Shown one piece after another: positions 7,671 to 15,822 of a DNA stretch of 39,899 nucleotides (within the stretch, counting starts at the first letter, position 1; every line of letters begins with the position of its first letter). Location: sequence record MZ234023.1. One strand, 5' to 3'. The position numbers and the translations under genes were made by a program. The notes under the pieces were generated by a model. The model was not told where the DNA came from, made no database searches, and was given only the letters and a program-made list of their open reading frames with translations. This DNA comes from Escherichia phage vB_EcoP-101120B2.

Positions 7671-9429
7671 GAAAACACCTGCTGAAAGACAGGCTGAAAT
7701 GACCCAAAGGATGAGGGACGACTTCGTGTTCTTCATCTTCGTTCTCTGGAAAGCGCTGAGCCTTCCGGTTCCAACCAGATGTCAGATAGATATGTGTAAG
7801 AAGCTGGCTGCTGGCGATAACCGACGCTTCATCCTTCAGGCGTTCCGAGGTATTGGCAAATCGTTTCTGACCTGTGGTTTCGTGGTCTGGAAGCTATGGA
7901 ATAACCCAGACTTGAAGTTCATGATTGTGTCGGCCTCAAAGGAGCGAGCCGATGCTAACTCCATCTTCATCAAGCGAATCATCGACCTCATGCCTCAGCT
8001 TCAGGAACTCAAACCTAAGCAGGGACAGCGAGATGCGGTTATTAGCTTCGACGTGGGACCTGCCAAGCCAGACCACTCACCTTCGGTTAAGTCCGTTGGT
8101 ATCACTGGTCAGTTGACTGGTAGTCGTGCTGACATCCTGATTGCCGATGACGTGGAGGTTCCGAACAACTCAGCGACTCAGGCTGCACGAGACCGTCTAT
8201 CAGAGCTTGTGAAAGAGTTCGACGCTATCCTGAAGCCGGGAGGTACGATCATCTATCTGGGTACTCCTCAGAACGAGATGACCCTGTACCGTGAGCTGGA
8301 AGGTCGTGGGTACACCACTACTATCTGGCCCGCTCGTTATCCACGCGACAGGAAGGACTGGCAGTCTTACGGCGACCGTCTGGCTCCTATGCTTCAGGCA
8401 GAGCTGGAAGAGGACCCTGAGTCCTTCTACTGGCGTCCGACTGATGAAGTACGCTTCGATGATACGGACCTGAAGGAACGTGAGCTGTCCTACGGTAAAG
8501 CTGGCTTCGCTCTACAGTTCATGCTTAACCCGAACCTGAGTGATGCCGAGAAGTACCCTCTTAAGCTCCGTGACCTTATCGTAGCCGACTTGGACCCAGC
8601 GTCCAGCCCAATGGCCTACCAATGGTTGCCGAACCCTCAGAACAAGCGTGAGGACGTTCCTAACGTTGGACTCATGGGTGACTCGTACCACACGTATCAG
8701 ACTGTAGGTTCTGCCTTCAGCTCATACACCCAGAAGATTCTGGTCATTGACCCTAGTGGTCGTGGTAAGGATGAAACTGGATATGCGGTACTGTACCAGC
8801 TCAACGGCTACATCTTCGCTATGGAAGTTGGTGGCATGCGTGGTGGTTATGAATACTCTACGCTGGAAGCCTTGGCTAAGATTGGTCGTAAGTGGAGGGT
8901 AAACGAATACGTCATTGAGGGTAACTTCGGTGATGGTATGTACCTTGAGCTATTCAAGCCTGCATCGGCCCGTATCCATCCTGCGGCTGTAACTGAAGTG
9001 AAGAGTAAGGGTCAGAAAGAACTACGCATCTGTGACGTTCTGGAGCCTATCATGGGGTCTCACAGACTTATCGTTAACGCTGCTGCTATCGTCCAAGACT
9101 ACCAGACAGCCTCTGACAAGGATGGTGTTCGTAACCCTATCTACTCTCTATTCTATCAGATGACACGTATCTCTCGTGAGCGTGGAGCCTTGGCACACGA
9201 TGACCGACTTGATGCGCTGGCTATCGGTGTACAGTTCTTCGTTGAGTCGATGGCTAAGGATGCCAACAAAGGCGAACGTGAAGTCACTGAGGAATGGCTG
9301 GAGGAACAGATGGAGAACCCACGGAAAGGCTTCGAGTCCATCCACACTGAGTTCTGGGACAATGGGGTCCGGGTAACTCACGATACGGACGACGAGCTTG
9401 GACTAGGGTCATACGTTACGTTCCACTAG
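7663..9429 (+). CDS. Terminase large subunit (gp19-like)
   Basis: 588-aa ORF, size and sequence similar to recalled T7 gp19 (ATPase and nuclease regions). GGAGGG RBS. Confidence 0.9.
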
Positions 9430-9524
9430 CTGAATGAATAATTATAGGTGAAAGCCGCATGAATACGCGGTTAGTAACCTATAGTTACTACCAGTCTAAC
9501 ATACTGTTTTACAAGGAGTTTGGA

Positions 9525-9547
9525 CTTAACTATCACTATAGGGAAGA
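9525..9547 (+). promoter_or_regulatory. Phage RNAP promoter (phiOR equivalent)
   Basis: CTTAACTATCACTATAGGGAAG downstream of terminase, position equivalent to T7 phiOR. Confidence 0.65.
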
Positions 9548-9726
9548 CCCCCGGTTACTTATAGTATTACTGTAGTGAATATACATATGCAGACTTTATG
9601 CAAGACCTTAGGAGGCAGACTCCGAGTTCTTACCTAAGGCTTGCACCGATGGAAGGAGGGTGATATTAATCATAATCCCTCCAATACAGATAGTCACCGA
9701 CCATAGATACAGGAGGTATGTAGCAT

Positions 9727-9885
9727 ATGGCAAAGACCAAAGCTGTACTTAAAGCTCTGGCGACCAATCGAGCTACATACAGGTTTCTTGCTGCTGTTCT
9801 ACTTGCTGCTGGCGTTACTGCTGGAAGTCAGTGGGTCGGGTGGGTCGAGACTCTCGTATGTTCTCTGGTGTCTGAGTGTCGTTAA
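9727..9885 (+). CDS. Small membrane protein (gene 19.5-position ORF)
   Basis: 52-aa ORF (below the ORF-track cutoff) with AGGAGG RBS 10 nt upstream. Hydrophobic core FLAAVLLAAGVTAGSQWVGWV. Sits downstream of the phiOR-like promoter as T7 gene 19.5 does. Confidence 0.4.
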   Translation: MAKTKAVLKALATNRATYRFLAAVLLAAGVTAGSQWVGWVETLVCSLVSECR

Positions 9886-10121
9886 CGCCGTAATGGTAAC
9901 AATCAACGAAAGTAAGACCTAAGGTCAGTTCATAGCTGACGCTACTCTACTGACCTTAGCTACTGTAGTCAAGGACTTTAGGTAACACCTTAAAAGAAGC
10001 TCACTTAGGGTCATCCTACTTATTGGTCTATCCTAGTGTCGCCTGACCTACGGTCCTTGACCTACAGTAGCTGGTTCCTAAGGAGGGACGATGAGTTTTG
10101 GACCAAAAGTTTGAGACCACA

Positions 10122-10335
10122 TCTCACAGTTCAAGAACATCAAGTCTCCCCCATAGGCCTCTTTCAGTCCAGACCAAAGGCCCTACCCCAGTCTATCATA
10201 AGGTTGGACCGATGGTCAAGACTTCAGGTCAACGATAGGTTGTGGCTATGGCTTAGGGAAGGACGATAGGTTGGGACTATGGGTCTGTCTTTGAGTCTCT
10301 ATCTGTATCAGACCTTGAGTCACTACCTACAGTCT
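10122..10335 (+). repeat. Probable direct terminal repeat / concatemer junction (single copy); physical left end inferred near 10122
   Basis: Begins TCTCACAGT and contains CCCCCATAGG, GGGTCTGTCTTTGAGT, CCTTGAGT and TACAGTC, which recall the T7 left-end terminal repeat in the same order. Boundaries approximate. Confidence 0.35.
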
Positions 10336-10393
10336 AACTACCTACAGTCATCGACCATCGGTAATGCCGCTACCTACAGTCATCGACCTACGG
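10323..10393 (+). repeat. Short direct repeats CTACCTACAGTC(ATCGACC), three copies, with related GACCTACRGT copies at 10045-10070
   Basis: Direct observation. Analogous in position to the short CCTAAAG repeats flanking the T7 terminal repeat. Confidence 0.5.
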
Positions 10394-10507
10394 TTAATAG
10401 ACACAAGGATATAGACTTAAGGTCTAATACATGTTAGTCAAAGACTATATCCTCTTAGTCACTATGGGGCCGACGATAGCTTAATCAATATTATTTAAGA
10501 TTACCTA

Positions 10508-10540
10508 TTGACTACAGGTCCAGACTATGGCTTAATAGCT
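10508..10540 (+). promoter_or_regulatory. Candidate host sigma70 early promoter (A1-like)
   Basis: TTGACT, 17-18 bp spacer, then a weak -10 (CTTAAT/TTAATA). Confidence 0.3.
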
Positions 10541-10648
10541 TCCGTCAACACGACACGGCAACAACCGGATAGTGAAGACGCCGGGTCATCCCGGTTAAGT
10601 AGACAGCCTGATAAGTCATACGAACAACAGGCAGATGACAGAAAGTAG

Positions 10649-10686
10649 TTGACAAGATGTACCGACTTAAAGTAGTATGTACCACA
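10649..10686 (+). promoter_or_regulatory. Candidate strong host sigma70 early promoter (A2/A3-like)
   Basis: TTGACA at 10649-10654, 18-bp spacer, TAGTAT -10. Flanking sequence resembles the T7 A2/A3 region (GTAGACAGCCTGATAAGTC ... GTTGACAA). Confidence 0.5.
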
Positions 10687-10794
10687 TCAACACGAAACAA
10701 CGGTGACGACCAACACTGAAACGGTCTACCTGAAGTCCTCTGACTGAAGGGAATGCTCTTTAACAATCTGGATAAACTCTTAATGTGCGCCGAC

Positions 10795-10854
10795 AGTGAT
10801 TAACTACAGGGTCTTTGAGTCTACATCTGAAGGCCCTGACTGATAGTCACTAAC
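10795..10854 (+). repeat. Early-region repeated element copy 1 (AGTGATTAACTACAGG ... CCTGACTGATAGTCACTAAC)
   Basis: About 60-bp element with imperfect terminal inverted repeats. Shares its central segment with copy 4 (11998-12057). Immediately precedes an early ORF. Confidence 0.7.
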
Positions 10855-10861
10855 TTAACGG

Positions 10862-11116
10862 ATGGACACTATGAAACACTTAAGCACAATCACTAATCGC
10901 AATGAAGTATTCGTGAACACTAAAGGTTATGCGTGGATTCAGCTTAAAGAGATGAGAGGAGCGCGTCACCGTGTGGTAGTTCGCAAGGTATCAAGCAAGC
11001 CGTTCAGCAACTACAGCGTAGATACTATGCGTATAGACAACGAGACTTACCTGATAGACTCGCAGATAACCGTGCGTCCTACAGCGGGCATCTCAGCTCC
11101 TTATTTCGCTAACTGA
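10862..11116 (+). CDS. Hypothetical early protein
   Basis: 84-aa ORF downstream of repeat element; weak RBS; no recognisable homolog. Confidence 0.5.
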   Translation: MDTMKHLSTITNRNEVFVNTKGYAWIQLKEMRGARHRVVVRKVSSKPFSNYSVDTMRIDNETYLIDSQITVRPTAGISAPYFAN

Positions 11117-11117
11117 G

Positions 11118-11226
11118 AGTGATTAACTACAGGTCGTTAGACTGATAGCGGCCTGACTGATAGTCACTAACAAGTGATTAACTACAGGTCGTTAGACTGA
11201 TAGCGGCCTGACTGATAGTCACTAAC
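11118..11226 (+). repeat. Early-region repeated element copies 2 and 3, perfect tandem duplication of a 54-bp unit
   Basis: 11118-11171 and 11173-11226 are identical, separated by one base. Same termini as copies 1 and 4 but a different central segment. Confidence 0.8.
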
Positions 11227-11254
11227 ACATAATTAACTTTGAGAGGATATAACT

Positions 11255-11761
11255 ATGGAACGTAATGCTAACGCATACTATGAGCTGCTGGCTGCAACCG
11301 TTGAGGCATTTATCGAGCGTATTCAGTACGACCACCTGACTCAAGATGATGACTACAGCGATGCGCTGCATGAGGTCGTAGACGGTCAGGTTCCACACTA
11401 TTACCACGAGATTTTTACGGTGATGGCTGCTGATGGTATAGACCACGAGTTCGAAGACTCTGGGCTGATGCCTGAAACCAAGGACGTAACGCGTATCCTA
11501 CAAGCTCGCATCTATGAGGCGCTTTATAACGATGTGTCTAATAGCTTGGATGTAGTCTGGTTTGAGGATGAAGAGGCAGAAGAAGAGGATGAATATTGGG
11601 TAGTTGACGCTAAAACAGGCGCAATAATTGTGCAAGCTGTAGCTCTTGAGGTCGCTACTGCATGTACCAAGGTTAACTATGCGGCAGGTCGCCACCTGAA
11701 GGTGGAAGACATCAATGATAACGTAGTGTTCGACCCTGCGGCTGAGGACTGCGAGCGATGA
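11255..11761 (+). CDS. ocr: Ocr-like anti-restriction protein (gp0.3) with ~50-aa C-terminal extension
   Basis: GAGAGGA RBS. Residues ~30-105 ([44 protein letters not shown]) closely match recalled T7 Ocr, followed by an acidic stretch. The ORF continues to 168 aa, whereas T7 Ocr is 117 aa. Confidence 0.8.
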
Positions 11762-11928
11762 TAACTTACGGTTTATGCCAGCACCACGTCACCAACGCCC
11801 GACTTATGGTCAAGACCGGGCGGTTAACCCATGATGAGACTATGCGTCTCCTGAAGGTGGTCTACAAGCGCCGCAAGCGCATACACGACAGTTTGCACGC
11901 TGAGGATAACCAACAATGCTCCAGATAA
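11758..11928 (+). CDS. Hypothetical small basic protein (translationally coupled to ocr)
   Basis: 56-aa ORF whose ATG overlaps the ocr stop (ATGA). Below ORF-track cutoff. No homolog recognised. Confidence 0.3.
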
Positions 11929-11997
11929 CTTATAGCAGCGAACAAGCGTTCTACGACGGGTGCTACGAGATGATGAAGCGCGATACTTGCTAGCGAC

Positions 11998-12057
11998 AGT
12001 GATTAACTACAGGGTCTTTGAGTCTACATCTGAAGGCCCTGACTGATAGCCACTAAC
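11998..12057 (+). repeat. Early-region repeated element copy 4
   Basis: Near-identical to copy 1 (one substitution, TAGTCACT to TAGCCACT). Precedes the ORF at 12074. Confidence 0.7.
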
Positions 12058-12073
12058 AACTGAGAGGACAGAT

Positions 12074-12301
12074 ATGAACACAATCACTGGTGCCATAGCC
12101 AAAGGTTTTCGAGCAATTTTCAGTGAATCGCAAGAAGTATGCACCAATCATAAATTCGTACTTTCTTGCGTAGTAGGGGACGAGTTTGACGGATTCGATA
12201 AACTGGTGGTTTGCGACCATTGTGGACAAGAGGCTATCCAACGCTCAAACGGTAAATTTGAATTAATAGACGATAGCCTTACAGAAGGAGACGGCGAGTA
12301 A
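12074..12301 (+). CDS. Hypothetical early protein with possible Cys4 zinc-binding motif
   Basis: 75-aa ORF with GAGAGGA RBS. Cys at 23, 32, 47 and 50 (CDHC). Confidence 0.5.
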   Translation: MNTITGAIAKGFRAIFSESQEVCTNHKFVLSCVVGDEFDGFDKLVVCDHCGQEAIQRSNGKFELIDDSLTEGDGE

Positions 12302-12334
12302 CCTAGATAAACAGGAGAGAACCAAATCGTAGCT

Positions 12335-12362
12335 TGACCATAACGCTGACAGGTGGATACTG
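12335..12362 (+). promoter_or_regulatory. Candidate sigma70 promoter
   Basis: TTGACC, 16-bp spacer, GATACT (the same -10 hexamer as T7 A1). Confidence 0.3.
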
Positions 12363-12433
12363 AGTGATAGACGAGAGGCCGTCGAATGATAGGTGGCCTC
12401 AAAGATTATCACTTGAATTAATAGGAGTTAACT

Positions 12434-12523
12434 ATGAGTGTGGGATATTGGGTCTGCCTAGCGCCAGTTATCTGGATGATAGGCTATGGGTTATACGACT
12501 GTATTAAACGGAAATCACTATGA
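12434..12523 (+). CDS. Hypothetical 29-aa hydrophobic peptide
   Basis: TAGGAG RBS. ATGA overlap with the next ORF. Hydrophobic sequence. Confidence 0.3.
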   Translation: MSVGYWVCLAPVIWMIGYGLYDCIKRKSL

Positions 12524-12717
12524 GTCTTGCACTATTGATAGCCATAGGCTATGGACTTATCGCATACGTGCTGGTGAGAGACATCAACAAGGCACGTAAA
12601 GTCTATAAATTCAACTATGTACGTATGGTCCGCTGGACTGTACGTCAACCTAACGGACGATTCCTGCGCAATTTAGCGAACGTCTGGGATATAGCAACTC
12701 TTGGGAGCAAACTGTAA
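12520..12717 (+). CDS. Hypothetical small membrane protein
   Basis: 65-aa ORF with N-terminal hydrophobic helix (SLALLIAIGYGLIAYVLV). Overlapping start and stop with neighbours. Confidence 0.5.
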   Translation: MSLALLIAIGYGLIAYVLVRDINKARKVYKFNYVRMVRWTVRQPNGRFLRNLANVWDIATLGSKL

Positions 12718-13043
12718 TGAACAAGTCATACGGGATTAATCTGGTACACTCTATGGACGCAGAAATGAACATGTTAAGCCTACTGGCTACCGGGTATCGT
12801 CACGGAACGTCAAGTCACACCGCACGTCAACAGCAGGAGAGGGACCGTGTACTACAGGCGCGACTCAGGGCAGAGGGCCATAAGTCCGAACTGATGTGTC
12901 TGGCGTATGGCGGACGACCGATCACTGACGATGGTAAACTTCTGGTATCAGGCTGGAAGGCGATAGACCAACGGTCAACCATCAAGCACACGACTCACGG
13001 TGACTTCAGCCGTCTCCACGCTAACCCACTGATATGCAAGTGA
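12717..13043 (+). CDS. Hypothetical early protein
   Basis: 108-aa ORF with GGGAG RBS, occupying the position of T7 gene 0.7. No kinase motifs recognised. Confidence 0.55.
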   Translation: MNKSYGINLVHSMDAEMNMLSLLATGYRHGTSSHTARQQQERDRVLQARLRAEGHKSELMCLAYGGRPITDDGKLLVSGWKAIDQRSTIKHTTHGDFSRLHANPLICK

Positions 13044-13050
13044 TTATGAC

Positions 13051-13072
13051 TTAACTATCACTATAGGACTCA
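13051..13072 (+). promoter_or_regulatory. Phage RNAP promoter immediately upstream of the RNAP gene
   Basis: TTAACTATCACTATAGGACTC, 70 bp upstream of the gene 1 start codon. Followed by a repeat-rich leader (AAGTGAAAGAC x2, GACTTTAAGT x2). Confidence 0.6.
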
Positions 13073-13140
13073 AGGTCTAAGACTCCAAGTGAAAGACCAA
13101 AGAGACTTTAAGTGAAAGACTAATAACAAGGACTTTAAGT

Positions 13141-15822
13141 ATGAGCGTCATCTCTATTGACAAACACGACTTCTCTGATGTGTCGAACGCCATTGAGCCG
13201 TTTAACCTGCTGGCTGACCACTACGGGCAAGACCTTGCAGTCAAACAGCTTCAGCTTGAGCATGAGGCCTACACTGAAGGTGAGCGACGTTTCATCAAGA
13301 ACCTTGAGCGTCAGACCGAGCGAGGGGAACTGGCAGACAATCAGGTCGCCAAGCCTTTGATGCAGACTCTGGTTCCTAAGATTGCGCAAGCCGTCAAGGA
13401 GTGGCACGAAGGTCCAGACGGGAAGCTGTCAACCTCACGTCCGAGCGTAGCGTTCACCATGTTAAGCACTGAAGAGAAGGCCGTCAAGGACCGCTCTCTT
13501 CGCATCTCCTGCGAGTCTGCTGCGGTTATCATACTGAAGGTCATCCTCTCCAAGCTGGTCAAGCCTGAAGGTATACCGATTACACCGATGGCCTCCGCGA
13601 TAGGTCGCACACTTGAGGATGAAATCCGATTCGGTCGCATTCGTGACAAGGAGAAGGAGCACTTCAAGAAGGCGATAGCTGATAACCTGAACAAGAGAGC
13701 CGGGGCATCATACAAGAAAGCCTACATGCAAGCGGTCGAGACATCCATGCTGGAGCAAGGCCAACTAGAAGATGCGTGGGGAACTTGGAGTCCGACCGAG
13801 GCTGTCCACGTTGGAATCAAGATGCTGGAGATTGTCATACAGTCAACACAACTGGTCGAGCTTAAGCGTTACGGTGCTGGCAATGCAGCGGCTGACGTTG
13901 AGATGGTCCACCTGTCAGACTTCTGGGTCAAGAAGATGGCACAACGAGGATTCAGCCTTGCGGGTATCGCCCCAGTCTACCAGCCTTGCGTCGTTCCGCC
14001 TAAGCCGTGGACTGGTGTCGTAGGCGGTGGGTATTGGGCCAAAGGTCGAAGACCATTGCCACTGATTCGCTTAGGGTCTAAGTCTGCGGTAGCACGTTAT
14101 GAAGACGTATACATGCCTGAAGTCTATGAAGCTGTGAATATCATCCAGAATACACCTTGGAAAGTGAACAAGAAGGTATTGGACGTGGTGAACAGGGTCG
14201 AGAAGCTGAACAACACGCCTATTAATGACATCCCTCAGATGGAACCGCTGAAGCCTGAGGACTATGCTGGTGAAACCGAGGAGGAACTCAAGGCATGGAA
14301 GAAGGCTGCTGCTGGTATCTATCGCCGCGAGAAGGCCAGACAGTCACGCAGATTATCACTGAGCTTTATCGTTAACCAAGCAAACAAGTTCTCTCAGTTC
14401 AAGGCCATCTGGTTCCCGTACAACATGGATTGGCGAGGTCGTGTCTACGCTGTCCCGATGTTCAACCCTCAGGGTAACGACATGCAGAAGGGGCTCCTGA
14501 CTCTGGCAGTCGGCAAGCCTATTGGTGCTGACGGTTTCAAATGGCTGAAGGTCCACGGTGCAAACTGTGCGGGTGTCGATAAAGTCACCTTCGATGAGCG
14601 CATCAAGTGGGTGGAAGACAACCACGAAAACATCATGGCTGCTGCTAAGGCACCGATGGATAGCATTGAGTGGTGGGGCAAGTTAGACTCTCCGTTCTGC
14701 TTCCTAGCGTTCTGCTTCGAGTATGCTGGCGTAATGCACCACGGCTTGTCTTACTCCTGCTCGCTGCCGATAGCGTTCGATGGGTCCTGCTCTGGGATTC
14801 AGCACTTCAGCGCTATGCTTCGCGACCACATCGGTGGACATGCAGTAAACCTGACGCCATCCGGTAAGGTCCAAGACATCTACCGCATCGTGTCTGACCG
14901 CATTGAGGAGGAGCTTAAAGTCCTACTGGTTAACGGTACGGACAACGAGATGGTAACTCACGAGGACAAGAAAACTGGTGAGATTACCGAGCGTCTCAAG
15001 CTGGGGACACGAGAGCTTGCCCGTCAGTGGCTGACCTACGGTATGTCACGAAAGGTCACTAAGCGTTCGGTCATGACTCTGGCCTACGGGTCGAAAGAGT
15101 ACGGCTTCGCAGACCAAGTTTACGAGGACATCGTGATGCCAGCGATTGACTCAGGGTCTGGCGCTATGTTCACTGAACCAAGCCAAGCAGCTCGCTTCAT
15201 GGCTAAGATGATTTGGGAAGCTGTGAGTGTGACCGTAGTTGCTGCGGTTGACGCGATGAAATGGCTTCAGGGTGCTGCCAAGCTGCTTGCTGCTGAAGTG
15301 AAGGACAAGAAGACTGGAGAAATCCTGAAGCCTTGTCTTCCGGTACACTGGGTCACACCTGATGGTTTCCCTGTCTGGCAGGAATACCGAAAGAAGGACA
15401 CCACTCGTCTGAACCTGATGTTCTTAGGGTCATTCAACCTTCAGCCTACCGTCAACAAAGGCACGAAGAAAGAGCTGGACAAGCACAAGCAGGAGTCAGG
15501 CATTAGCCCGAACTTCGTCCACTCACAAGATGGTAGCCACCTCCGCAAGACTGTAGTCCACACGCACCGCAAATATGGCGTGATGTCATTCGCAGTGATT
15601 CACGATAGCTTCGGGACCATCCCGGCTGACGCTGAGTATCTGTTCCGTGGAGTCCGTGAGACGATGGTCGAGACCTACCGCGACAACGATGTGCTGCTTG
15701 ACTTCTACGAGCAGTTTGAATACCAGCTTCACGAGAGCCAGAGAGACAAGTTGCCTGAGCTTCCTAAGAAAGGTAAACTGAATATCGAAGACATCTTGTC
15801 TTCAGACTTTGCATTCGCTTAA
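13141..15822 (+). CDS. Single-subunit DNA-dependent RNA polymerase (gp1)
   Basis: 893-aa ORF. Extensive identity to recalled T7/T3 RNAP (YMPEVYEAVNIIQNTPWKVNKKVL, WFPYNMDWRGRVYAVPMFNPQGNDM, HGANCAGVDKV, FAVIHDSFGTIPADA, C-terminal SDFAFA). Confidence 0.95.
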   Translation: MSVISIDKHDFSDVSNAIEPFNLLADHYGQDLAVKQLQLEHEAYTEGERRFIKNLERQTERGELADNQVAKPLMQTLVPKIAQAVKEWHEGPDGKLSTSRPSVAFTMLSTEEKAVKDRSLRISCESAAVIILKVILSKLVKPEGIPITPMASAIGRTLEDEIRFGRIRDKEKEHFKKAIADNLNKRAGASYKKAYMQAVETSMLEQGQLEDAWGTWSPTEAVHVGIKMLEIVIQSTQLVELKRYGAGNAAADVEMVHLSDFWVKKMAQRGFSLAGIAPVYQPCVVPPKPWTGVVGGGYWAKGRRPLPLIRLGSKSAVARYEDVYMPEVYEAVNIIQNTPWKVNKKVLDVVNRVEKLNNTPINDIPQMEPLKPEDYAGETEEELKAWKKAAAGIYRREKARQSRRLSLSFIVNQANKFSQFKAIWFPYNMDWRGRVYAVPMFNPQGNDMQKGLLTLAVGKPIGADGFKWLKVHGANCAGVDKVTFDERIKWVEDNHENIMAAAKAPMDSIEWWGKLDSPFCFLAFCFEYAGVMHHGLSYSCSLPIAFDGSCSGIQHFSAMLRDHIGGHAVNLTPSGKVQDIYRIVSDRIEEELKVLLVNGTDNEMVTHEDKKTGEITERLKLGTRELARQWLTYGMSRKVTKRSVMTLAYGSKEYGFADQVYEDIVMPAIDSGSGAMFTEPSQAARFMAKMIWEAVSVTVVAAVDAMKWLQGAAKLLAAEVKDKKTGEILKPCLPVHWVTPDGFPVWQEYRKKDTTRLNLMFLGSFNLQPTVNKGTKKELDKHKQESGISPNFVHSQDGSHLRKTVVHTHRKYGVMSFAVIHDSFGTIPADAEYLFRGVRETMVETYRDNDVLLDFYEQFEYQLHESQRDKLPELPKKGKLNIEDILSSDFAFA

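Follow-up and report, generated by a model that had tools for sequence, protein, structure and literature searches.

An ordinary Kayfunavirus early gene block encodes a diverged T7 gp0.4-family protein, a candidate for the FtsZ inhibitor of phage K1F

Introduction

Gp0.4 of bacteriophage T7 is built of two antiparallel α-helices. The protein is an inhibitor of FtsZ (Kiro et al. 2013, cited in PMC9372555). Both its binding to FtsZ and its toxicity need residues V15, V22, W28, M32, L35 and Y39, and the single substitutions W28L and W28A inactivate it (PMC13423816). Phage K1F produces a comparable phenotype: infected E. coli form filaments, division is blocked and FtsZ is mislocalized (Dhanoa et al. 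2022, PMC9372555). The same study states that K1F "lacks the 0.4 genes" and describes its inhibitor as "currently unknown" and likely novel.

The K1F early region (NC_007456 / AM084414) consists of genes 0.3 and 0.35, a gene for an unnamed 55-aa membrane protein, gene 0.6 and gene 1, in that order. Here, we describe the corresponding region of Escherichia phage vB_EcoP-101120B2. An earlier note had read this region as one in which the T7 genes 0.4–0.7, among them the 0.7 kinase, were replaced by small genes of which none was recognizable.

Results

The early block is colinear with that of T7 and T3

The window (the whole stretch of DNA analyzed, 39,899 nucleotides; MZ234023.1) is a permuted complete Kayfunavirus genome with 99.6% nucleotide identity to PM129 and relatives. 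Six small ORFs on the plus strand, of 56, 25, 75, 29, 65 and 108 aa, separate ocr (11255–11761) from the RNA polymerase gene (13141–15822). The features of the region are as follows.

10795–10851, + strand: RNase III-type processing hairpin upstream of the 84-aa ORF (−23.2 kcal/mol, z = −3.6)
10862–11116, + strand: 84-aa early ORF, outside the finding (phrog_10124, E 1e-38; 93–94% in K1F and LM33_P1)
11118–11227, + strand: two tandem 55-nt units, 100% identical, with one RNase III-type hairpin each (z = −4.6)
11255–11761, + strand: ocr (gene 0.3), DNA-mimic anti-restriction protein, 168 aa (PF08684, E 3.5e-30)
11758–11928, + strand: 56-aa gp0.4-family protein, orthologue of K1F gp0.35/gp02, predicted FtsZ polymerization inhibitor
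11916–11993, + strand: 25-aa ORF, the 5' portion of a truncated 41-aa ORF; Ro45lw has the intact version
11998–12054, + strand: RNase III-type hairpin before the 75-aa cassette, a 98% copy of the hairpin at 10795–10851
12074–12301, + strand: 75-aa acidic protein with a putative CxxH...CxxC zinc ribbon, mobile early cassette (phrog_32657)
12334–12361, + strand: predicted sigma-70-like promoter, TTGACC, 16 nt, GATACT (consensus match 9/12)
12363–12413, + strand: homologue of the T7/T3 RNase III site R0.5
12434–12523, + strand: 29-aa membrane peptide in the T7 gene 0.5 position, with an AGGAG ribosome-binding site
12520–12717, + strand: 65-aa membrane-anchored basic protein, K1F '0.6' (phrog_2385)
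12717–13043, + strand: 108-aa protein in the gene 0.7 position of other Studiervirinae (phrog_7066)
13051–13067, + strand: phage RNA polymerase promoter upstream of gene 1, an exact match to the consensus TTAACTATCACTATAGG
13141–15822, + strand: gene 1, T7-type single-subunit RNA polymerase, 893 aa

The ORFs of the earlier note are correct in size and position, and the 25-aa ORF is present in addition to them. Its description of the block as translationally coupled was confirmed by overlapping start and stop codons at three junctions: ATGA between ocr and the 56-aa ORF (11758–11761), ATGA between the 29-aa and 65-aa ORFs, and TAATG between the 65-aa and 108-aa ORFs. The 56-aa and 25-aa ORFs also overlap, by 13 nt. 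Shine-Dalgarno sequences are recognizable for most ORFs, those of the 65-aa and 84-aa ORFs being weak. All six small ORFs, including the 25-aa and 29-aa ones, are kept in other Kayfunavirus genomes, with pN/pS values of 0.10–0.55.

K1F, which belongs to the same genus, has the same gene order and likewise lacks the kinase. Identities are 81% for ocr (51% to T7 Ocr, relative to which there is a C-terminal extension of roughly 50 aa), 92% for gp0.35 (gp02), the counterpart of the 56-aa ORF, and 92% for gp0.6, the counterpart of the 65-aa ORF. The two phages differ in three respects. The 75-aa cassette and its extra hairpin are found in the window only, K1F has the 55-aa membrane protein where the window has the 29-aa peptide, and a 65-aa remnant stands in K1F in place of the full-length 108-aa gene. 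The order in common with T7 and T3 is 0.3, a 0.4-like gene, the R0.5 RNase III site, a small membrane peptide and a 0.6-type gene. Departures from the T7/T3 layout are limited to the 0.7 position, where a different gene is located, and one inserted mobile cassette. This layout, found in K1F and some 200 deposited genomes, is the standard one of the genus Kayfunavirus rather than a peculiarity of this phage, contrary to the earlier view of a particular replacement of genes 0.4–0.7.

Could the block nevertheless consist of wholly unrecognizable novel host-takeover or anti-defense genes, as the earlier note proposed? Pfam and NCBIfam scans gave no matches for the small ORFs, whose public names are all 'hypothetical protein', and for four of the six products (25, 75, 29 and 108 aa) we detected no relative with a known function. 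This reading is unlikely, however, as two ORFs have clear T7/T3 counterparts and the block follows T7 and T3 in gene order and in the location of the R0.5 site. The description of the ORFs as unrecognizable fails for the 56-aa ORF, assigned to the T7 gp0.4 family, and for the 65-aa ORF, a homologue of T3 gp0.6. Homology to 0.4–0.7 products, which the note itself had set against its reading, is thus found in part of the block.

The 56-aa ORF is a diverged member of the gp0.4 family

BLAST does not detect a relationship between the 56-aa protein and T7 gp0.4, which are about 30% identical over 42 residues. Profile comparisons, in contrast to BLAST, place the 56-aa ORF in the gp0.4 family as a diverged member. 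T7 gp0.4 matches phrog_5058, the family of the 56-aa ORF (E 9e-5), and phrog_25044 is matched by both proteins. Direct comparison with hhalign gave 91% probability (E 1e-6); the family-against-family comparison gave 98% (E 2.8e-13) with a gp0.4-family alignment that includes KpZ57, recruited by a weak match only. Searching 1.84 billion representatives with the profile of the 56-aa family returned 10 proteins and did not reach T7 gp0.4 at E < 1e-3; one of the matches, P0187, was discarded as a tandem-repeat artefact. Proteins of Pectobacterium phages PP47/PPWS4 and Klebsiella phage KpV289 are intermediate in sequence between gp0.4 and the 56-aa protein. A precomputed Pfam accession, PF26807.1, is found on all homologues of the 56-aa protein; no mention of PF26807 was found in the literature.

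Gene position agrees with this assignment. The 56-aa gene adjoins ocr through the ATGA overlap and lies upstream of R0.5, as in T7, where the end of gene 0.3 and the start of gene 0.4 fall together at nt 1278. The pN/pS of the ORF is 0.23–0.55. Further points of likeness to T7 Gp0.4 are a YGL motif, a central Gly, a length of about 50 aa and, at the level of phenotype, the filamentation seen in K1F infection as in that by T7. The 56-aa protein differs from T7 Gp0.4 in its more basic C-terminal tail (RRKRIH).

The T7 residues V15, V22, W28, M32, L35 and Y39 align with V11, V18, H25, M29, L32 and Y36 of the 56-aa protein. Five of these six FtsZ-contact residues are therefore identical (V11, V18, M29, L32 and Y36), and they are nearly invariant across the family. 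The exception is the W28 equivalent, H25, which is invariant in the alignment of close homologues; PP47 also has a His at this position. All five residues that contact CapRel differ between the 56-aa protein and T7 gp0.4. Because none of the CapRel-Ebc contacts is retained, the 56-aa protein may not trigger the CapRel-Ebc defense.

An alternative is that the 56-aa protein and gp0.4 have a common ancestor, yet the 56-aa protein acts on another target, filamentation then being caused by a different early protein such as the 65-aa or 29-aa product. The His in place of W28, a residue essential in T7 gp0.4, the identity of only about 30% and the diverged surface seen at the five CapRel contacts would all fit such a change of target. 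We regard it as doubtful, since the other five FtsZ contacts are unchanged and hardly vary within the family, K1F infection gives the same phenotype as T7 infection, and His also occupies the W28 position in the PP47 protein, whose record names it a putative FtsZ inhibitor. Under the favored assignment to FtsZ, the 56-aa protein would bind monomeric FtsZ at the synergy-loop face through V11, V18, M29, L32 and Y36. Such binding would block assembly of the Z-ring and leave the host filamentous. Membership in the gp0.4 family, together with this predicted binding, makes the 56-aa protein the best candidate for the FtsZ inhibitor of K1F.

RNase III-type hairpins are predicted to divide the block

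The R0.5 homologue can be aligned to the hairpin that the T3 record labels 'RNase III recognition site R0.5', and its lower stem is identical to that of T7 R0.5. Across 10 phages, 96.8% of cells in the alignment are paired, and compensatory changes, located in the upper stem, are seen at 3 pairs. The sigma-70-like promoter predicted at 12334–12361 is the positional equivalent of the annotated T3 'E. coli B promoter'; its −10 element abuts the R0.5 hairpin exactly as in T3.

The window differs from T7 and T3 in carrying extra, near-identical hairpins (at 10795, 11118, 11173 and 11998) that bracket variable cassettes. The hairpin at 10795–10851 has the lower stem, internal loop and upper stem of T7 R sites and would likewise be cleaved. 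At the place of the 11998–12054 hairpin, LM33_P1 has a variant hairpin; a scan of the K1F locus, which is without the 75-aa cassette, found none. No known RNA family was found in 9400–13200 with Rfam. A second difference is the phage promoter before gene 1, which stands in place of R1. Its consensus TTAACTATCACTATAGG occurs 11 times in the genome, where chance alone would give 0.13.

By analogy with T7 and T3, we infer RNase III cleavage at these hairpins as well as early transcription of the block. Host RNA polymerase would transcribe it from left-end promoters, and cuts at the hairpins would release units carrying the 84-aa ORF; ocr with the 56-aa and 25-aa ORFs; the 75-aa gene; and the 29-aa, 65-aa and 108-aa genes. 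Within each unit, the stop/start overlaps would couple translation.

At one site, three phages with about 99.5% identity to one another have different arrangements: hairpin–ORF–hairpin, hairpin–hairpin or a single hairpin. This is the site of the tandem units at 11118–11227, between the copies of which PM129 has a 92-aa ORF; phage 101120B1-2 has a single copy. Near-identical RNase III-site hairpins might accordingly be portable recombination joints for the gain and loss of cassettes, with the 75-aa protein, the 108-aa protein or both as new host-takeover or anti-defense effectors. The position of the 75-aa gene behind an extra hairpin copy fits such joints, yet we consider the proposal as a whole improbable.

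The 29-aa and 65-aa ORFs encode predicted membrane proteins

The two membrane peptides of the earlier note correspond to the 29-aa and 65-aa ORFs, both with hydrophobic N-terminal segments (Kyte-Doolittle 17-residue maxima of 1.60 and 2.52, respectively). The 65-aa ORF can be assigned by sequence as a homologue of T3 gp0.6, with 40% identity over 63 aa (E 1e-9); it is also 41% identical to KpV289 gp05. It shares with T3 gp0.6 the length of 65 aa, an N-terminal transmembrane helix (the hydrophobic segment comprises residues 3–19), an RFTVR-x2-NGRF motif and the location after R0.5. Downstream the two phages diverge: genes 0.65 and 0.7 (the kinase) come next in T3, the 108-aa gene in the window. 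There was no BLAST match between the 65-aa protein and T7 gp0.6A, the MreB inhibitor, and their PHROGs differ (2385 versus 8393 and 29241).

The 29-aa ORF matches T7 gp0.5 in its position directly after R0.5 and in its hydrophobic character; no sequence homology between the two was detected by BLAST or PHROG. It is kept in ST31, yong1 and Ro45lw (66–93% identity, pN/pS 0.14–0.26), and a member of its cluster is named 'transmembrane domain containing protein'.

The 25-aa ORF is 88% identical to its counterparts in SH4 and Ro45lw, with a pN/pS of about 0.2 that is based on few sites. The 41-aa version in Ro45lw matches phrog_33188, whereas the hairpin and the 75-aa cassette interrupt the window version, its truncation being due to insertion of that cassette. 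It is possible, though we lean against it, that the 25-aa ORF and perhaps the 29-aa ORF are non-functional as genes. The former is a truncated ORF without a PHROG match and is unannotated in PM129. Nonetheless, pN/pS is about 0.2 for both. A strong AGGAG ribosome-binding site precedes the 29-aa ORF, which is also coupled to the 65-aa gene, and its pattern of hydrophobic and basic residues persists at 66% identity.

The 75-aa gene is a mobile cassette

The 75-aa gene is a horizontally mobile cassette in common with unrelated siphophages. Kagunavirus siphophages carry the protein at 88–93% amino-acid identity, and the DNA common to Bas73 is gene-sized (window 12047–12318, 88% nucleotide identity). 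The family is small, with only 5 clusters among 5.8 billion proteins. Within the phage collection, 56 records from two unrelated families matched, all but two of them named as Escherichia or Kayfunavirus phages (the others are one Salmonella and one Acinetobacter phage). The gene is immediate-early in both podophage and siphophage contexts, and among near-identical Kayfunavirus genomes some have it and others lack it. In the window it would have been inserted behind the extra hairpin copy.

The earlier note had pointed to a Cys-rich ORF, and the 75-aa ORF indeed has 4 Cys. C23, H26, C32, C47 and C50 are invariant in the family and include the putative knuckles C23-x2-H26 and C47-x2-C50. AlphaFold2 modeled the core, residues 21–68, as four β-strands with a pLDDT of about 70–77. 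Foldseek comparison of this model to PDB and BFVD returned nothing significant; the top PDB matches, kinase N-lobe β-sheets, were dismissed as chance (E about 0.6 or worse, TM about 0.35).

The distribution of this gene raises the possibility, a minority one in our estimate, that it is an E. coli-specific anti-defense or host-range determinant moving between unrelated phages. The predominance of Escherichia and Kayfunavirus phages from two unrelated families, the high identity, the gene-sized shared DNA with a pN/pS of 0.10, and the immediate-early and variable occurrence all point in this direction. Against it, the protein has no homology or fold match to known anti-defense proteins, and a role as a regulator of host metabolism is equally possible.

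The kinase is absent and its position is taken by a 108-aa gene

Absence of the kinase, as claimed in the earlier note, extends to the whole window. T7 gp0.7 had no tblastn match anywhere in the 39.9 kb (best E 0.77), no ORF of the window matched the kinase PHROGs, and none of 10 Kayfunavirus records examined has a kinase annotation. The kinase is present in 908 other phage records. Its absence is presumably tolerated because the host RNA polymerase inhibitors gp2 and gp5.7, both annotated in PM129, are retained.

The gene at the 0.7 position encodes a 108-aa protein that is limited to Kayfunavirus-like phages. It was found in 216 phage records, and the complete contigs among 140 homologues are phage-sized, at about 40 kb. 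Residues 25–108 form a conserved core, while the N-terminus is variable. The 108-aa gene resembles gene 0.7 in genomic position only and has no homology to the kinase or to the C-terminal shut-off domain; derivation from gp0.7 was rejected (hhalign probability 0.2%). An AlphaFold2 model (pLDDT 51) was too poor for a fold search, and a profile search of PDB sequences gave noise only. A 185-aa ORF inserted in Salmonella phage STP-SP3 was tested as a kinase remnant and is not one.

The 108-aa protein might still substitute for gp0.7 in function without being a kinase, by shutting off host transcription or by modulating RNase III and RNase E. Its gene immediately precedes gene 1, is translationally coupled to the 0.6-type gene and occurs throughout the genus under strong purifying selection (pN/pS 0.11–0.40). 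We find this very unlikely. The protein is unrelated in sequence to any part of gp0.7 and lacks a confident fold, and in STP-SP3 a further, unrelated ORF has been inserted immediately before the 108-aa gene. K1F has only the 65-aa remnant, which suggests that the 108-aa gene is dispensable.

Discussion

We put the probability at about 70% that this locus is an ordinary Kayfunavirus class I (early) block, colinear with that of T7 and T3, in which the 56-aa protein is a candidate for the K1F FtsZ inhibitor. The host-takeover roles that the earlier note proposed for the block remain plausible. In other respects the locus is typical of the genus, and it offers the mobile cassette and the 108-aa protein as candidates for functional screens.

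Recognition of the 56-aa protein and K1F gp0.35 as a diverged gp0.4 reduces the question of the K1F inhibitor to a one-gene experiment. The family relationships also suggest that gp0.4-type FtsZ inhibitors are far more common in Studiervirinae than assumed, extending to Kayfunavirus, Przondovirus and Pektosvirus, with different surfaces at the sites that the CapRel-Ebc defense senses.

Organization of the early region

The 39,899-bp sequence is a complete, circularly permuted T7-group genome of the genus Kayfunavirus (K1F-like). Its region 10800–13140 shows 99.4–99.6% identity to Escherichia phages vB_EcoP-PM129, PM131, PM137, PM139, 101120B1-2 and 22664UKE3-2, and matches 239 phage records, most of them Kayfunavirus. 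Such a locus is normal for the early region of K1F-like phages, has been sequenced before and is not a peculiarity of this genome. Six small ORFs, named here by product length, lie between ocr (gene 0.3, a DNA-mimic anti-restriction gene) and gene 1 (T7-type RNA polymerase). Public databases already contain all six products as "hypothetical protein", and one K1F record names the 56-aa homologue gp0.35.

Features of the early region
10795–10851, +, hairpin, same architecture as 12363–12413
11118–11168, +, hairpin, same architecture
11173–11223, +, hairpin, same architecture
11255–11761, +, ocr (Pfam PF08684, E 3.5e-30)
11758–11928, +, 56-aa ORF
11916–11993, +, 25-aa ORF
11998–12054, +, hairpin, same architecture
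12074–12301, +, 75-aa ORF
12334–12361, +, sigma-70-like element (TTGACC, 16 nt, GATACT; consensus match only)
12363–12413, +, R0.5-like hairpin, lower stem the same as T7 R0.5 (GAGUGAUAGAC ... GAUUAUCACUU)
12434–12523, +, 29-aa ORF
12520–12717, +, 65-aa ORF
12717–13043, +, 108-aa ORF
13051–13067, +, perfect phage promoter
13141–15822, +, RNA polymerase gene (893 aa)

The ORFs were found exactly where an earlier note had placed them, and the overlapping start and stop codons it described are present at ocr/56 (ATGA), 29/65 (ATGA) and 65/108 (TAATG). The 56-aa and 25-aa ORFs have 13 nt in common. Shine-Dalgarno sequences precede most ORFs but are weak for the 65-aa ORF and for an 84-aa early ORF upstream of ocr. 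All six ORFs are kept in other Kayfunavirus genomes with pN/pS of 0.10–0.55 (from small counts for the 25-aa and 29-aa ORFs), which argues that they are real coding sequences and not chance. The note also described two predicted membrane peptides and one Cys4 motif, and hydrophobic N-terminal segments are indeed present in the 29-aa and 65-aa products, as are four cysteines in the 75-aa product. Genus-wide, the conserved core consists of ocr and the 56-aa, 65-aa and 108-aa types, with variable cassettes in between.

The 84-aa ORF (10862–11116; phrog_10124) has its own RNase III-type hairpin before it and is kept in LM33_P1 and, unannotated, in K1F. The window ocr encodes 168 aa versus 117 aa in T7, with the extra ~50 aa at the C-terminus; this extension is found in most Kayfunavirus genomes and is missing from Salmonella phage STP-SP3.

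Absence of the gene 0.7 kinase

T7 gp0.7 had no tblastn match across the entire window (best E 0.77), bearing out the proposed absence of the kinase. No kinase is annotated between ocr and gene 1 in any of ten Kayfunavirus loci, K1F and nine others, with hosts in Escherichia, Salmonella, Citrobacter, Hafnia and Kosakonia; gp0.7 homologues are found in 908 records of other genera. The gp2 and gp5.7 inhibitors of host RNA polymerase are kept in PM129, which is 99.6% identical to the window, and their retention is plausibly why the kinase and shut-off function is dispensable. In Kayfunavirus records LT594300, MH400309 and OM355495, the name 'protein kinase' is in some cases attached to the ocr or gp0.4-like region, and 'N4-like RNA polymerase' in some cases to gene 1; these labels appear to be annotation errors and could mislead automated comparisons.

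The 108-aa protein, which precedes gene 1, could possibly be a functional stand-in for the kinase, an idea that is unsupported; a relationship to gp0.7 was ruled out by profile–profile comparison (hhalign probability 0.2%). The protein occurs in 216 phage records and has 140 homologues, of which the members with complete contigs come from phage-sized ones of about 40 kb. Lengths range from 83 to 139 aa, some members having a 31-aa insertion; residues 25–108 form a strongly conserved core, the N-terminus is variable and pN/pS is 0.11–0.40. A PDB search returned no relative, and the AlphaFold2 model is of low confidence (pLDDT 51). K1F (NC_007456, L005 2262–2468) carries an unannotated GTG-start remnant of 65 aa, covering the C-terminal two thirds only.

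The heptapeptide NLVHALD occurs both in the variable N-terminus of the 108-aa family (12717–12790; e.g. YGINLVHALDADLN) and in gp03 of Pectobacterium phage PP47 (L016 172–459), where an N-terminal extension (SSANLVHALDMHWN) is fused to a gp0.4-like domain; the stretch may be an N-terminal module common to the two. In STP-SP3 (L013 1387–1944), the gp0.6-type gene is separated from the 108-aa-type gene by an extra 185-aa ORF, which has neither a PHROG match nor kinase similarity and therefore looks like another orphan early cassette.

RNase III-type hairpins and promoters

The layout of the early genes follows that of T7 and T3 colinearly. In alignment, the 12363–12413 hairpin corresponds to T3's annotated "RNase III recognition site R0.5"; among ten phages, 96.8% of its cells are paired, with compensatory changes in three pairs. 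The sigma-70-like element stands right next to this hairpin, an arrangement exactly matched in T3 by R0.5 and its annotated "E. coli B promoter". By homology to T7, RNase III cleavage would divide the early transcript into four units: the 84-aa ORF; ocr with the 56-aa and 25-aa ORFs; the 75-aa ORF; and the 29-aa, 65-aa and 108-aa ORFs.

The phage promoter consensus TTAACTATCACTATAGG occurs at 11 sites in the genome versus 0.13 expected by chance. Immediately before gene 1, in the place taken in T7 and T3 by R1, an RNase III site, and by the E. coli C promoter, the window has a perfect phage promoter and no R1 hairpin, so that gene 1 is possibly transcribed autocatalytically. Folding of the gene 1 leader (13044–13140) is not significant (z = −0.7).

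At 11118–11227 a 55-nt hairpin unit is repeated in tandem, its two copies perfectly identical. PM129 (L001 1828–2227) has a 92-aa ORF (phrog_9817) exactly between two copies, and 101120B1-2 (L002 1828–1878) has one copy. Alleles differing in this way suggest that cassettes are gained and lost at the RNase III-site repeats.

A mobile cassette with the 75-aa ORF

Clustered at 90% identity, a set of 5.8 billion proteins contains just five clusters of the 75-aa product, and its 56 phage records are nearly all E. coli phages. Its product is 88–93% identical to those of Kagunavirus-type siphophages (44–45 kb) XY1, Golestan, Bas73 and K1ind1. The DNA common to Bas73 and the window is gene-sized (12047–12318, 88% identity), with mostly synonymous differences in the gene (pN/pS 0.10). 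In Bas73 the gene is the first behind a promoter (TTGACA, 17 nt, TATTAT), and so is early there too. In the window, the hairpin in front of it is 98% identical to the one that precedes the 84-aa ORF, and insertion of the gene cuts a 41-aa ORF, intact in Ro45lw, to 25 aa. The gene is missing from K1F, yong1, ST31, SH4 and Ro45lw.

Invariant in the family are C23-x2-H26, C47-x2-C50 and C32. AlphaFold2 predicts a four-stranded beta core (pLDDT about 70–77), consistent with a putative zinc ribbon, and a Foldseek search with this model gave no significant match in the PDB or BFVD.

Relatives of T7 and T3 early proteins

The 65-aa protein is 92% identical to K1F "0.6", 40% identical to T3 gp0.6 (63 residues, E 1e-9) and 41% identical to gp05 of Klebsiella phage KpV289, a Przondovirus. 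The motif R(F/W)TVR-x2-NGRF and an N-terminal transmembrane helix are common to these proteins. A relationship to T7 gp0.6A, the MreB inhibitor, was rejected, the two being unrelated in sequence. The 29-aa ORF lies immediately 3′ of R0.5, the position of hydrophobic gp0.5 in T7. Its hydrophobic segment and basic tail are preserved at 66% identity, and sequence homology to T7 gp0.5 is not detectable.

The 56-aa protein (K1F gp0.35) is, as judged by remote homology, a diverged member of the family of gp0.4, the T7 FtsZ inhibitor. BLAST gives 32% identity to T7 gp0.4 across 41 residues. T7 gp0.4 matches phrog_5058, the PHROG of the 56-aa ORF (E 9e-5), and both proteins match phrog_25044. By hhalign, the 56-aa family matches T7 gp0.4 with 91% probability (E 1e-6), and a broadened family matches the gp0.4 family (T7, Morganella, Pectobacterium PP74/PP47/PPWS4 and a Klebsiella phage) with 98% probability (E 2.8e-13, 42 columns). 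The proteins from Pectobacterium phages (...TTYGLTRETVNNFRCLMAYGLSHDRAMVHLKRLYENNK...) are clear sequence intermediates, as is KpV289 gp03, which has 48% identity to the window protein. The 56-aa ORF takes the position of T7 gene 0.4, both genes overlapping the ocr stop codon. Profile searching with the 56-aa family across 1.84 billion representatives did not reach T7 gp0.4. All homologues carry the precomputed Pfam accession PF26807.1, given which the link may already be recorded. The earlier view of the locus as uncharacterised early accessory genes thus stands in part; two ORFs have T7/T3 homologues within a T7/T3-colinear layout, and the statement that none is recognisable fails for the 56-aa (T7 gp0.4) and 65-aa (T3 gp0.6) ORFs.

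KpV289 (L020 1126–1475) has two tandem gp0.4-like paralogues, gp03 and gp04, 3′ of its SAM hydrolase gene with one small ORF in between, and has retained the kinase as well; genes of the gp0.4 type thus appear to be widespread in Studiervirinae. The 66-aa metagenomic protein P0186 is a natural in-frame fusion of the N-terminal ~39 gp0.4-like residues to ~27 C-terminal residues of the 65-aa gp0.6 type, a deletion variant from which everything between is gone.

Substitutions at V15, V22, W28, M32, L35 and Y39 abolish FtsZ binding and toxicity of T7 gp0.4 (PMC13423816). Their counterparts by hhalign are V11, V18, H25, M29, L32 and Y36, so that five of six are identical. The essential W28, however, is not conserved; the His in its place is invariant among close homologues and is also found in PP47. 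The gp0.4 residues contacted by the CapRel-Ebc sensor, A12, T14, L16, S19 and R23 (PMC13423816), correspond to Q8, H10, T12, R15 and K19. Because all five differ, the 56-aa protein may not trigger this defence.

E. coli cells infected with K1F become filamentous and mislocalise FtsZ, and K1F was reported to lack "the 0.4 genes", similarity not having been found by BLAST, with an inhibitor that "is currently unknown" (PMC9372555). Given its gp0.4 homology and the 92% identity of the window protein to K1F gp02/gp0.35, the 56-aa gene is the obvious candidate for the K1F FtsZ inhibitor. This family assignment is the most useful result of the analysis, as it offers a concrete candidate for a factor that the literature calls unknown.
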